Of a DNA stretch of 64,000 bases, positions 36,001-42,000 are shown piece after piece (position 1 is the stretch's first letter; each line of letters starts with the position of its first letter). Source of the DNA: an uncultured Opitutia bacterium (GTDB lineage: Bacteria; Verrucomicrobiota; Verrucomicrobiia; Opitutales; Opitutaceae); NCBI GenBank assembly GCA_903839035.1, contig CAIMAQ010000111.1, forward strand, positions 10,968 to 74,967, in the 5' to 3' direction. Made by a program: the position numbers.

Positions 36001-39000
36001 GCGGCCTGCCGCTGGGGCTGGCCGAGGTGCTCGCCGACCAGCAGGCCGGCATGGAACGCTGGCGTCGGGGGCTGCGCCGGTTTCCGCGGGCGCCCTTCTC
36101 CAGCCTGCTGATCAGCCACCATGCGCACTGGCTCTATGCCGCCCGGGCATTGTCCGAGCCGGATCCCGCCTTCAACCATCCGCTGTTTTGGCAGGGTGCT
36201 CCAGAGCAACTGTATCCCGGCAGCCTCGCGGCACCGCTGGCCTTTCTCGACGAAGTCGCCCAGCTGCAGCAGCCCTGGCGGGAAGAAGTGCGCGCCGACC
36301 CAGTCACCGCCCCGTGGCTCGAGCCGGCCAGCCTGCGGCCACTCGTGCGCCTGCTGCAGTTGTGTGACGGTCTCTCGCTTGCGCTCAGCTCGGCGCTCGT
36401 GCCGGCCCGCTCGGGTCCGGCTCGGGGCTTCGGCGCGGACGCCTTTGAGTTACGCGACGTGCCGCGCAGTGGGTGGAATGACCGAGTGACGATCGTGGCC
36501 GAACCCATCGGCACGCGGCGCCTCGCACTGAATCCCTACCCCTTCGACCTCGACCCGCTGCCGATTGCCCTGCCGGTGCGCATCGTGGCGCCGGGCGCCG
36601 GCGCGGGGCAGCCGCTCGCCGCCTGGTGGCACGGCGTGCCAAGGCAGCTCTTCACCTGCGAGCTCACCTCCGGAGTCTAGGACCGTCGCGGACCCCACTC
36701 CGGGACGCTCGAAGTTAATGAAACCGAACCCCAACGGGATCGGGTCATGGAAGCATCCAATTGCCATTGACCGCATACCGGCACCGCCGTCCGGAACTGG
36801 CCGCCCATGCTATGTGGCGGAAGCCCTGTCTCCTCTGCGGGAAACGACTCACCTGAATGGGTGAATCAAGCCCTATTGCGTTTGTATAACTACGAGCTGA
36901 CAGAGCCTTATATTACTCCTTCCACCCGCAAGCCCGTCCTTCTCGATGCCTATCATCCCTGGCCAGTCTCTGGACCATCTTCGTGCTATCGTTCAAGCCT
37001 TTGGCGCCTCCGCCGGCCTGCCTTTTCTCCAGCTCGATGACCAAGGCTCAACGGCGGTGCGTCTGGGGTCGGGCGGCCGACTCGAATTGGAATACGCGGC
37101 CTCGTCCGATCGCCTGTTCGCCTACGTCGAAGTGCTCGTCGCGCCTCCGCAGGAATCGCTGCAGTGGGCGGCCATTGCGCGCCAGTCCGTGCAACTGATG
37201 TCCAATTACGGCTTCAGCCTCGGCCTTGGTGAGGTCGAGGGCTCGGATCGTCTGTTGGCGATGGCGTCCCTGCCGGCGGCCAATCTCTCCGAAGACACCT
37301 TGGGTGATTCTCTCCTTGAACTGGTCGCTGCGGCCGGCGCCGTCGGCGATCGCCTGCGCGAGCTCCCGCACGAACCCGCGACCACGGGCGACACCGGCAC
37401 AACCGCCGATCTACAGGTCATCCGGGTCTGATCTTCACCTCGACTCAACTCGCACATGCCCAGTCCCATCCAGGCCCAGTCGAACCCCATCCAGGCCACT
37501 CCGCTCCAGCCCGGAGGCGCGACCAGCTTGGGCAACTCGATCAAGCAGTCGTGGTCGAATACCTTCGCCGCGAGCAAACCGCTGTTCGCCGCGCGGGTAG
37601 TCGCCAACCTCACGGGAGTCGGTGCGCTGATCGACCTCGCCGCCACCTCCTACGTCCACTCCCGGGCCGCAGCCAAGCTGGGCGAGGCCGCACAACCCGC
37701 GACCCCCGCCAGACTCGCGCAAAACCGTCCGATCCTGCCGCACCAGCAGGCGAACGAGCAACTCGCGCAGGACTACTCCGAGCCGACGGCCGACACCTTT
37801 CGCAATCTCTTCGCCAGTCGGGCCGCAGTTGCCGGCGGGCGGGTGGACCTTGCCAGTGTCGACGTGGCCAGCCTGTCCAGGACCATCGTCAGGAAGATCG
37901 AGATGGAATCCAGCGGCGATCGTAATCCCGTCAGCGAGGAATCCGCCCGAAACATCGCCCTGACGCAGATCGACAAGTTCATCGGGACCAAGACGGCCCT
38001 GCTGAACGCCATCACGGGGCAGAACCTCCCGCCGGCCGAGGCGGGCCTGGTGACCCGTTTCGCGCTCACCCATGACATCAAGAACCCCCAGACCCTCATC
38101 GCCGCCCTCAGCCTGCGGACTAACGTCGCAACCCTGATCGGCCAGCTGCAGGATCCCGATCTCTCCCGCCGCGACCTGATCGGCGGTCTCTCCCAGTATC
38201 AGCGCGCCTACGACGCCGCCCTGACCCCGCTGGTGATTGGCAGGACCGCCGATGACTTCGGCGCCGACGATATTGTCGCCTTCGGCTCCGACGCCCTTGA
38301 ACTGGGCATGCTGCTGATGACCGCCGAGGCCGCAGCCGATGAGAATATCGGCGGGTTTCAGAGCACTTGGCAGGAGCTTTTTAGCCTGGTGAAGGAGCCG
38401 GACATTCGGGAACTCCGGGAATCGCTCCAGACCGCCATCTTCAACGGCGAGGGTGTGAGCATGGCGAGCTTCGCCAAGCTGCGGAGCCTCTACGACACGC
38501 TCGGGCTCGTGACCCATCACGCGGGAACCATGGCGGGGGAGAATCGCGACTCGATCCGCGAGGCCAGCAATGTCGAGGGCAACCTGCCGAACCTCGATGC
38601 CGTGCCCGCGGAAATCATCGAGGCGCTCAATCTCGGGGGGATGCCCGATGTCCAGTACAGCACCGGCAAGCAGCTCGCCGCCCTGACGGATCCGGACGCG
38701 CGGATGATGCTCTCCAACGCCCACTCGACCGCGGACGCAACGCGGGAAATCACCGGGCCCAATGCCAAGAAGATGACCGCGGACGAGCAGGATGCCTTCG
38801 TGGCCCGCCTCGGGGCGCAGGGAGAAGCGCTGTCGGCCTCGATTCACCGGCTCGACGGGGCTTCGGGAAACCAGGCGCTGCGGGAGCGGATCATCGGAGA
38901 ACTCAACGGCGAACTCCAGGGGGTGTCCGCCAAGTTGCAGGATCCCGCGCTGGCCGACGCGGTCCTGCGTCGCGATGTCGGACAACTCGCCAACCTCGAC

Positions 39001-42000
39001 AACCGCCAGGTCATGTCCAATGCGCTCGGCAACGCGAACGGCGCGGCGGAGCGGACTTCGGCCAATCCGGCGCGGCTGGCCGCGCCCGAACGGGCGCAGT
39101 TCCTGACGGAACTTCGGACCCAACGGGACACCCTGACCATGATGCGCGCCGCCGTCAACGGCCGCACCGGCGACGACGGCGTGCGGGCAAGGGTCTCGGC
39201 CGCTCTCAACCGCCAGCTCGGCCAGATCGAGGGCAAGCTGAAGAGCCCGGCGTTCGGCGACCTGATGCGCAAGGAGATGGAGACCGCGGCCGCCGCGCGC
39301 CTGAAGGCCCCGGACGGCACGCGGCCGGCAGAACATTTCAACAACCTCATGAACGACCCGACGATCCGGGGTAGCCTGCGGGCCTACCTGACCTCGACGC
39401 TCCAGGTTGAAAATCTGGATTTTTACGATGCGATCAGGACCTTCCAATCCGAACTCGGACGTACGCCTCAGACTAACACCCCGGCGCAGCTGCTCGCCTT
39501 CGCGGCGGAAATCGACGGGCGGTTCATCGGCTCAGGCTCGGAGAAGGACATCAACTTGGCGGCGGCGCTGGTAAATCAGTTCGAGCAACAGGTACTGACC
39601 ATGCAGCTGGCCTCACCCCAGCAACTTGTCACCCTTCTCTCCGCCTCCGGTCCGGGCTCGTTCCAGGATACCGTCCAGAAAGCCGCGGACGAAGTGAGCA
39701 AGCTGCTGCGGACGAACTCGGGGGCCAAATTCACGCAGTTTTTCGCCACCCAGCAAGCCAGTGCGCAGATCAATGCTGGCATCGAACGCAATCTCGGGAG
39801 CCACTTGACTCAGGCGCTGACCGAAGATGCCCAGAAGCCGCTGGGCGCCCAGCCCACCGGACCCAAGTTCCCGGAGGACCCTGCAGCGGAGACCCGGTTC
39901 AAGGGACTAGCGGCGAACTTCTCCGACCTGTTCATGGCCGACTTTCTGCGCAACGGCGTCACCGTCGGCGATCGGGCCATTTCCGCCCCCGGCAACGGCG
40001 ACGGCCCCCGGGCGCTCGCCCGACTGCAGGAACTCGTCGATGCCTTCGGCGGAGACGCCGCCCTCGCCGGCAACGTGACGCGGATGCTCGGGCAGAACAT
40101 CTCCGGCGCGCTCCAGCAGGGACTGTATCTGGACCAGTTCGGGCAGGGCTTGGTCGAGAAGTACAATGCGGACCTGCCCGACCAGGACACCCAGACGGTG
40201 GCACTGTCCATCTCCGGCCAGGCCGACGGCACGTATCGCGCCACCTACGCGTTCTCGCAGCAGACGCAGAAAAACACCGAACTGCGCGCCACACTGGGGA
40301 TGACAATCAACCCGCTCACTCTCGACCCAGGCACCCCGCCCACCATCCGCCTCGATCGCTTCGACTACCGGATCGGTGCTGCAACGCCGGAGCCGACTCC
40401 CGCCGCCGCGTCCGCGCCCCGGGCCCTCACCGGGCTGGAACAGTTGATCCAAGCCCGGGCGGCCCTCCGCCGAGACGGGGAAAATGAACCCGTGAATCCG
40501 GACGCCCCTCCGCCCGCCGCCGCGCAGCCCGGCCCTCGGCCGCTGGTGTCCACTCCGGTCGCCCCCGGCGATGACCCCCTCACCCGCAGGACGTGACGCC
40601 CGAGGCAGTTTCAATCCACGCCCCACCGTTCATGAGCAACCCTCCCTACGCCGCACTGATCAAGGACTTCCTGGCCACCGGAGTCATCGAACCGGCTCCA
40701 GCTCTCCCCGAAAATCCCGGGCTGCTGGAGTTCAAGGCCGGAGAGTTCACCTGTTCGGTTTTCCCGCTGGAGGGCGAGCTGCAGGTGGTCATTCAGTCCG
40801 AAGTGATGCGTCTTGACCAACTCACGGTCGAGCAGGCCCAGGCCGCGAGCATGCTCCTCCACGGGCTCAACTGGGCCGCACGGGTGGGCAACGGCATCAT
40901 GGCCATGATCGATGCCCACGGCACCGTGGTCGTCGCCAAGACCATCGAGATTCAGCGCCTCGACGGCAAGCGTCTGGGCGAGGAGATGGCCGCCGTGCTC
41001 GAAGCGGCCGAGAATCTTGCCCCCGTCGTGAAAGGATCGCCCCGCCCGCCGCATTCATCCGCTAGTCCACCCGCAGCTTCCCCCTTGGATATCCACCGCT
41101 ATGCCTGAAATTACCCTGCGCCCAGATACTTATCAGATTGCGGCCGACAAGACGGTGGCCGCGTCCTCCAGTCTGGATGCCGGGGCCGCGCAGGACCAGC
41201 TGAAGGATATTCGCGGCAGCCTGATGACAGCCCAGAATACGCTGCGCAGCGGATACCTCAGCCTCCAGAGTTCAAGCGACGGGCAGTTGACCATGGAAAG
41301 CCGGAGCAGGCTCAATCCCTTCGGGGATAAACAGGGGGCGGCAACCTTCGTGCGCGAACTCATCAACAAGGCCTACGGTGATCAGATTGGCCGAATGGAT
41401 GTCGTTTCCAAGGGCCATCTCCACGACGCCATCGAAAACTATCTTCAAGCGAAGGGCGGGAAATTGGGCACCGCGAGTTTTGTGAAGCTGCTCGACACCT
41501 TGGAATCCGCCTCGGCGGGGGCCACCGCCTGGGGAGCAGCGCCCGCGCGCGGATCGATCGCCCTTGAGGGGTCGCGCCTCAATTTTAGCGATCAGGCACT
41601 CTCCCGGCGGGAGCAGTCGGGTCTCAATACCTACCAAAACAACCCGAAAGCCTACCAGATCACCGAGAGGCCGACGGCCAGCCCGGTACTCCAATCCGGG
41701 CAACCTGACCACGCGGCCGGCGCGCGTTTTCCCCAGTCACTCAACCACGCGGTCGGGAGCGCCGCCTGGCTGCACCAGTCCGCGCTCAGCAACCCCTCCT
41801 CCGCCCTTTCGCCGTGGCGCCGGTCGGTCGAAATGAACCAGCTGGCAACCCTCGCGGGGACCCCCGTGGCCAATCCGAACGACATCCAGGCGGAAAACGG
41901 GAAAACCATCGCTCGCCTGGACGCATTGATTCTCGCCGAGATTCCCGGCCTGCCCCCGGGTACGCCGGGCGGCCTGGCCGCACTCGACAGCCTTCCGCCC

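Follow-up and report, generated by a model that had tools for sequence, protein, structure and literature searches.

Our analysis concerns a stretch of 64,000 nucleotides (nt) from an uncultured Opitutia bacterium (contig CAIMAQ010000111.1; hereafter the window) and, within it, an open reading frame (ORF) at 37456-40596 on the + strand, which starts with ATG and encodes 1046 amino acids (aa). We propose, with a probability of about 0.6, that the 1046-aa protein is delivered through a type III secretion system (T3SS) and acts in the recipient cell as a GTPase-activating (GAP) mimic for the alpha subunit of heterotrimeric G proteins (G-alpha). Genomic context supports the effector reading: the gene lies in a T3SS island, it is paired with a chaperone gene of the CesT family, and independent loci combine CesT genes with proteins that bear an RGS-type domain (regulator of G-protein signalling). 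The assignment of aa 613-776 as an RGS homologue is likewise supported, by sequence profiles and by a predicted RGS helical bundle. Host G-alpha is the target suggested by the conserved contact residues and by analogy with the role of eukaryotic RGS domains, and we infer translocation, GAP activity and what the remaining parts of the protein do.

An RGS domain in the 1046-aa protein

The RGS domain spans aa 613-776 (39292-39783, + strand). Its core, aa 628-760 (39337-39735), matches the Pfam RGS family (PF00615) over profile positions 2-109 of 117, with an E-value of 4.2e-9 and 37.2 bits (gathering score 23.9). The RGS domain of the homologue P0002 (55% identical) also scores above the Pfam cut-off (24.5 bits against 23.9). 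A profile made from four bacterial copies (alignment A2: the RGS domains of the 1046-aa protein and of P0002, and the two of the neighbouring protein encoded at 32621-35698) retrieved upwards of 30 different RGS chains of known structure from the PDB, among them RGS6 (E 1e-10), RGS2 (3e-10) and RGS7 (6e-10), with further matches to RGS8, RGS18, RGS4 and RGS16, to E ~1e-6. These alignments take in both halves of the domain, the ENxxF…xINL half as well as the C-terminal 'L..DS..RF' helix. For the single sequence, the best PDB match is the amoebal (Entamoeba) EhRGS-RhoGEF (4gou, E 0.016).

Conclusions on the fold were drawn from a separate model of the RGS domain and not from the model of the full-length protein. 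The AlphaFold2 model of aa 608-795, built on an alignment of 17 bacterial RGS sequences (A4), has a predicted local distance difference test (pLDDT) of 77.8 and a predicted template-modelling (pTM) score of 0.68. When it was compared with the PDB by Foldseek, the top 42 matches were all RGS or RGS-homology domains at a probability of 0.99-1.00, with target-normalised template-modelling (TM) scores mostly of 0.61-0.79 and, for most, a root-mean-square deviation of ~3 Å over 133-149 columns. The full-length AlphaFold2 model, built on four sequences, has a pLDDT of 44, and its Foldseek matches are meaningless (TM <=0.13 for the long ones). A previous reading of this DNA from its sequence only (the sequence-only reading) had noted an RGS pattern at ~39328-39755 and had suggested a profile search and a structure prediction as checks; the Pfam match bears the pattern out, and profile searches (Pfam, A2 against the PDB) and structure prediction (AlphaFold2/Foldseek) both support an RGS fold. 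Its count of three RGS-like domains in two proteins was also correct, one of them lying in 37456-40596 and two in 32621-35698.

Contact residues and possible GAP competence

For the comparison with RGS4 we relied on its sequence, its numbering and its list of contacts in the RGS4-Gi-alpha-1 complex (1AGR), checked for internal consistency only. Under this assumed mapping, the positions of E87, N88, N128, L159 and S164 of RGS4 are presumably E652, N653, N700, L750 and S755 of the 1046-aa protein, with identical residues, and that of R167 is taken to be K758. E652 and N653 sit in the motif ENLDF and N700 in DINL. All 17 aligned bacterial RGS domains have the Asn at the RGS4 Asn128 position as well as the Phe of ENLDF. 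Moreover, the best sequence matches are to the GAP-competent R7 and R4 subfamilies, and not to RGS-homology domains of the GRK, axin or SNX type. Given this contact-residue pattern and these best matches, a GAP-competent domain is favoured over a non-catalytic RGS-homology domain, and we infer that the RGS domain of the 1046-aa protein may be able to stimulate GTP hydrolysis.

Chaperone pairing and the type III secretion island

Directly upstream of the ORF, at 36946-37431 on the + strand, lies a gene for a 161-aa class I T3SS chaperone of the CesT family (Pfam CesT, E 9.2e-8, 32.7 bits, cut-off 22), the stop codon of which is 24 nt ahead of the effector ATG; this chaperone is presumably dedicated to the downstream 1046-aa protein. 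The sequence-only reading had described a 1046-aa ORF preceded by its own CesT-like chaperone and by a TCACC-N6-GGTGA box, and all of this was recovered here: the coordinates were reproduced, the chaperone matches Pfam CesT and an exact box was located. The pair forms part of a T3SS island in which four combinations of a CesT gene and a large protein follow the translocon genes, and three RGS domains in two candidate effectors are encoded there.

The pairing with CesT genes extends beyond the window. It is also found at the homologue loci L081, L084, L085 and L086; the gene of P0061, a protein made of an RGS domain and another helical domain (domain A, see below), immediately follows a CesT gene in a T3SS cluster other than this one (L091, GCA_054000975.1), and P0074, a protein with two RGS domains (L094, 754-4050), is likewise preceded by a CesT gene. 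In P0074 each RGS domain is broken by a large insertion with repeated 'M(A/D)DFEDPEQSEFESLF' segments, a further instance of repeats within a bacterial RGS protein. The P0002-type homologues adjoin CesT genes that are transcribed divergently, and further candidate effectors; the hemC/hemY genes also neighbour these loci, which we take as a hint at Proteobacteria.

Domain architecture and modular sharing

At >=90% identity the 1046-aa protein forms a cluster of 24 members in NCBI, ENA and Logan assemblies, and P0002-P0004 are homologues at 54-55% identity. The source assemblies are all metagenomic, and the 1046-aa protein itself comes from lake metagenomes. The GC content around the ORF is ~66%, and a long ORF on the opposite strand (37435-39447), for which there is no supporting evidence, was taken as a shadow ORF of the kind that is frequent in GC-rich DNA.

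The N-terminal region, aa 1-94 (37456-37737, + strand), is rich in Ser, Pro, Gln and Thr and predicted to be disordered (pLDDT <30 for aa 1-93 in the full-length model), and it presumably holds the secretion signal and the chaperone-binding region. It is followed by an all-helical domain to which no function has been assigned and which we call domain A (aa ~95-405, 37738-38670, + strand), by a duplicated helical-hairpin unit, by the RGS domain, and by an uncharacterised C-terminal alpha/beta domain (aa ~810-975, 39883-40380, + strand). The protein ends in a Pro/Ala-rich tail (aa 976-1046, 40381-40593, + strand), predicted to be disordered apart from one short helix.

An exhaustive profile search of 1.84 billion representative proteins returned 48 relatives at E <=0.001, which match separate parts of the 1046-aa protein. 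The N-terminal ~110 aa of the P0002 lineage are common, in near-identical form, to at least eight otherwise different proteins (P0049-P0054, P0056, P0084), whose C-terminal parts are unrelated; this looks like the shuffling of a common secretion or chaperone-binding module among putative effectors. One of these proteins, P0049 (272 aa), consists of the P0002-type N-terminal module and an RGS domain with little else. Domain A is present in ~25 representative proteins and recurs in other putative effectors, where its fusion partners are Fic (P0048), an inositol polyphosphate kinase domain (P0055) and a C-terminal RGS domain (P0061, P0062, P0064); no sequence relatives of it were found in Pfam or the PDB. 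The motif 'LRGSIS'/'LRTNVAT' had prompted us to consider domain A as a RhoGAP of the YopE/SptP/ExoS type, an assignment that was rejected: the Arg, which should serve as the arginine finger of a GxLRxxxT-like motif, is not conserved (family members have K, Q or A in place of R221 of LSLRTNVAT), and there is no match to the YopE family in Pfam or the PDB.

The C-terminal domain belongs to a family that ends proteins of ~700 aa and longer (P0047, P0065, P0069, P0072, P0076, P0078, P0079, P0083). It is marked by the motif F-S-x-x-F-x-x-D-F-x-R-x-G, followed by A-G-x-x-T-x-x-x-x-Q, in which D, R and Q are invariant. Sequence relatives of this domain were also absent from Pfam and the PDB; its structural matches to NTF2/SnoaL-like folds are weak (target TM 0.31-0.35, probability 0.25-0.77) and concern a region modelled at pLDDT <50.

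The two copies of the helical-hairpin unit were located by pairwise alignment at aa 426-508 (38731-38979, + strand) and aa 527-608 (39034-39279, + strand). They share 23 identities over 83 positions (28%) with one gap, and their Smith-Waterman score of 102 exceeds that of every one of 2000 shuffles (30.1±5.6, maximum 58); pairwise BLAST gives an E-value of 7e-10. The duplication that the sequence-only reading had seen as a ~75-aa unit at ~38780-39290 is therefore real, the unit being slightly longer, at 83 aa. No third copy was found in the 1046-aa protein, which thus holds exactly two. According to the low-confidence full-length model, each unit would consist of two long antiparallel helices (442-466 and 473-494 in copy 1; 545-568 and 574-595 in copy 2) with a 'DG..G' turn between them. 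Since both copies are kept in P0002, the duplication predates the split of its lineage from that of the 1046-aa protein. The unit was not detected outside this family in the protein sets searched.

Proposed function and alternative explanations

Under the function that we propose, the dedicated CesT-type chaperone (36946-37431) would bind the disordered N-terminus of the 1046-aa protein and pass it to the island's own injectisome, for delivery into a eukaryotic cell, probably a freshwater protist. In this host the RGS domain (aa 613-776) would bind the alpha subunit of a heterotrimeric G protein in its GTP-bound or transition state and speed GTP hydrolysis in the manner of canonical R4/R7-type RGS proteins. 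Receptor-driven G-protein signalling, for example in chemotaxis or phagocytosis, would then be ended or shortened. For domain A, the duplicated hairpins and the C-terminal domain, the likeliest roles would be to position or orient the RGS domain, by membrane or partner targeting or as a spacer, or to add a second activity.

Several observations weigh against this proposal. About 85% of the 1046-aa protein has no assignable function, and the RGS domain may for this reason not be its main activity. The role of aa 1-94 in secretion is presumed from composition and predicted disorder. Two contact positions, again under the assumed RGS4 mapping, carry substitutions (D163 to N754, S85 to Q650), and an insertion of ~20 residues separates the central and C-terminal helices in comparison with canonical RGS domains. 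The model of the RGS domain was built on just 17 sequences, and its Foldseek E-values are modest (best 1.7e-2). Finally, the best matches of the island's SctN in species-representative genomes, among the matches listed, are 71% identical and spread over several phyla, belonging to Planctomycetaceae, Opitutales and Alcaligenaceae alike.

The alternative that we take most seriously, while judging it considerably less probable than GAP mimicry, is a protein whose RGS-homology module lacks GAP activity and which would instead sequester activated G-alpha, or bind some other partner, as a scaffold or decoy. The RGS-homology domains of GRK2, axin (which binds APC) and the sorting nexins provide precedents for partner binding without GAP activity, and those of axin and GRK2 occur among the Foldseek matches (ranks 18, 34, 36, 48 and 50); the differences from RGS4 at Q650 and N754, the insertion within the domain and the large extra domains, which would suit a scaffold, point in the same direction. 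They are countered by the profile matches, which fall on GAP-competent R7/R4 proteins and not on GRK, axin or SNX, by the retained E-N pair of the alpha3-alpha4 loop, and by the Asn128 equivalent, invariant in the 17 bacterial copies and not known to be conserved in non-GAP RGS-homology domains.

It is rather unlikely that the protein is indeed delivered by the T3SS but owes its main activity to domain A or to the C-terminal domain, acting as an enzyme or targeting module, with the RGS domain merely localising it to membranes rich in G proteins. The sharing of domain A with proteins that carry Fic or inositol polyphosphate kinase domains would fit, as would the existence of the C-terminal domain as a family of its own with invariant D, R and Q; on the other hand, Pfam and PDB searches recognised no catalytic signature in these domains, and it is the RGS domain that recurs as the 'payload' in short relatives (P0049, and P0061 and P0062, in which domain A is joined to RGS). 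We give very little credence to the view that the protein is no effector at all, either because it acts inside the bacterium or because the RGS match is a chance likeness of a helical protein. The poor full-length model (pLDDT 44) speaks for such a view, whereas three independent lines argue for RGS homology (Pfam, the A2 profile against the PDB, and Foldseek), every locus examined combines the gene with one for a CesT chaperone, and the gene lies within or beside T3SS genes. In addition, heterotrimeric G proteins are the only known substrates of RGS domains, and they are absent from bacteria. An injected GAP mimic is the explanation that we prefer.

Homologous loci and origin of the RGS domains

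The neighbouring double-RGS protein (1025 aa; 32621-35698, + strand) carries RGS domains at aa 176-330 (33146-33610) and aa 378-562 (33752-34306) and has its own CesT chaperone gene upstream (32135-32596, + strand). It is represented by nine homologue clusters (P0005-P0013), all of which contain RGS (9/9). Six of the nine are ~570 aa long and match only the RGS-bearing N-terminal half. The ~400-aa C-terminal extension of the double-RGS protein (aa ~600-1025) is absent from these six clusters; it shows a Cys/His pattern, 'GGGGHCMFHS … GGNHWQS', that resembles papain- or OTU-type proteases by eye only. It has no Pfam match, and its sole PDB match, Acanthamoeba profilin (E 0.005), is probably spurious.

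The double-RGS protein and its homologues resemble the 1046-aa protein in having RGS domains with the invariant Asn, a CesT gene of their own and a place in the same island, and differ from it in that domain A, the C-terminal domain and the hairpin duplication are missing. When the RGS domains were compared all against all by phmmer, that of the 1046-aa protein scored higher with unrelated RGS proteins from metagenomes (P0086, 36.2 bits; P0088, 34.9; P0074_b, 34.4; P0082, 30.3) than with the two domains of its neighbour (just 16.7 and 15.6 bits), and no similarity between the 1046-aa and 1025-aa proteins was detected outside the RGS domains. The nearest relatives P0082, P0086 and P0088 stand on short contigs. 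Because of these low mutual scores and the lack of similarity elsewhere, the three RGS domains of the window are not recent duplicates of one another; a recent tandem duplication was rejected on the same comparison (15-17 bits mutually against 30-36 to unrelated RGS proteins). An ancient expansion or separate acquisitions are both possible origins on these scores.

The related metagenomic contig L086 has the same gene order as the window, including the gene for a DUF3891 protein between the RGS-effector operons. It also holds, at 5684-9346, an extra insertion without counterpart in the window, which separates the translocon genes from the double-RGS operon and contains a 412-aa ORF, a CesT gene and a gene for a protein of 632 aa that combines TPR repeats with a Glyco_transf_41 (O-GlcNAc-transferase-like) domain. 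In view of this insertion, the effector complement of the island varies between close relatives.

The TCACC-N6-GGTGA box

An exact TCACC-N6-GGTGA palindrome, TCACCTGAATGGGTGA, lies at 36849-36864 (no strand assigned), 82 nt upstream of the start codon of the chaperone gene; no sigma-70 consensus promoter was found in the intergenic region ahead of this gene. Further exact copies occur at 2607-2622, directly after the gene of a LuxR/GerE-type regulator (1848-2531) and 78 nt ahead of sctW, and at 22146-22161, preceding a 993-aa ORF, and a copy with one mismatch is found 3 nt past the sctD stop codon (10703-10718). All four boxes (2607, 10703, 22146 and 36849) stand in front of T3SS genes on the + strand. 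Counting sites with no more than one mismatch, the window has six where 2.0 would be expected, a number attained in 2 of 100 shuffles. In L086 the box precedes both RGS-effector chaperone genes (9391-9406 and 14232-14247, the latter being the site of the orthologous chaperone); this conservation carries no weight, because the intergenic DNA is ~97% identical overall and offers no usable phylogenetic footprint. The box was not found in the P0002-type loci. Judging from its positions, it is plausible that the box serves as an operator or activator site of a T3SS regulon.

Other genes of the island

Besides the regulator gene mentioned above, the island includes genes for SctW/HrpJ (2685-3554), SctD (9402-10700), SctJ (12387-13313) and SctN (14580-15911; NCBIfam, E 5.5e-230), followed by those for a TPR chaperone (28752-29303) and for SseC-like (29350-30891) and SseD-like (30940-31908) translocon proteins. 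Between the two RGS-effector operons lies the gene for the DUF3891 protein (35739-36680, E 1.5e-36). Downstream of the 1046-aa ORF, the next chaperone gene of the CesT family (40593-41108, + strand; Pfam CesT, E 1e-4, 22.8 bits, cut-off 22) overlaps with its start the stop codon of the ORF, and owing to this overlap the two probably belong to the same operon. It is followed by the gene of a CesT-paired 1371-aa effector candidate (41101-45216, + strand) with an atypical-kinase-like domain of the ABC1/UbiB type at aa 791-1035 (Pfam ABC1, E 5.6e-15), a domain uncommon for an effector candidate. Next, at 45348-48109, come a gene for a protein of 755 aa, whose Ser/Thr kinase domain is of the eukaryotic type (Pfam Pkinase, E 9e-33), and an overlapping CesT gene; this protein gives weak matches to LegK1 and XopAU, and its CesT gene is downstream, not upstream.

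Three very large ORFs, at 22165-28707 and 50641-55440, are almost without annotation. The first two encode proteins of 993 aa and of 1051 aa, the latter with one SWM repeat, and lie after the genes of the T3SS apparatus and ahead of that of the translocon chaperone; the third encodes 1599 aa with FN3 and MBG domains. The window gave no match in scans with Rfam, for tRNA genes or with the PADLOC defence models.

Relation to known systems and significance

The RGS domain described here shares with eukaryotic R4/R7 RGS proteins (RGS2/4/6/7/8/16) and with EhRGS-RhoGEF its sequence-profile homology, its predicted helical bundle, the ENxxF motif and the Asn128 equivalent. It differs from eukaryotic RGS proteins in that it is part of a bacterial protein of 1046 aa, with no other eukaryotic-type domain and paired with a secretion chaperone, and from the solved RGS domains by an identity of 16-23%, by the interhelix insertion and by N and Q at two contact positions. 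Among bacterial proteins, the RhoGAP domains of YopE, SptP and ExoS and the RabGAP activity of LepB and SopD2 mimic GAPs for small GTPases. As with these proteins, an injected protein would turn off a host GTPase non-covalently, and those that are T3SS effectors are chaperone-paired; in contrast, the presumed target is heterotrimeric G-alpha and not Rho or Rab, and the RGS module is a true homologue of a eukaryotic domain and not a convergent arginine-finger fold as in GAPs of the YopE/SptP/ExoS type.

Heterotrimeric G proteins are covalently modified by cholera toxin, pertussis toxin and Pasteurella PMT, through ADP-ribosylation or deamidation. With these toxins and with Salmonella SseI the 1046-aa protein would share its presumed target, host G-alpha. 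While covalent G-alpha toxins mostly uncouple their target or lock it in the on state, an RGS mimic would be catalytic and reversible and would switch signalling off. The nearest functional analogue acting on heterotrimeric G proteins that came up in the literature is SseI itself, a G-alpha-i deamidase (PMC6107295). No account of a bacterial RGS-domain effector was found in the full text of open-access papers and preprints, and an earlier mention elsewhere is possible. The candidate RGS effector would be a T3SS-delivered GAP mimic built on a eukaryotic-like domain and directed at a class of targets for which only covalent bacterial modifiers have been known so far.

In a wider perspective, the chances seem to us evenly balanced that RGS proteins constitute a widespread, hitherto undescribed class of T3SS effectors in several unrelated environmental bacteria, with high-GC as well as low-GC DNA, each paired with a CesT chaperone and switching off protist G-protein signalling by GAP mimicry; no earlier bacterial inactivator of G-alpha would then be non-covalent. 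Comparison has also defined two uncharacterised effector-associated domains, domain A and the C-terminal alpha/beta domain, which recur with Fic, kinase and RGS payloads and deserve structural study. If the RGS domain is active, compact and divergent RGS domains of this kind might be of use as tools, and a new mechanism of host manipulation would be at hand. The G-protein-coupled sensing of protists, on which chemotaxis and phagocytosis depend, would then be a target in environmental interactions between bacteria and protists.

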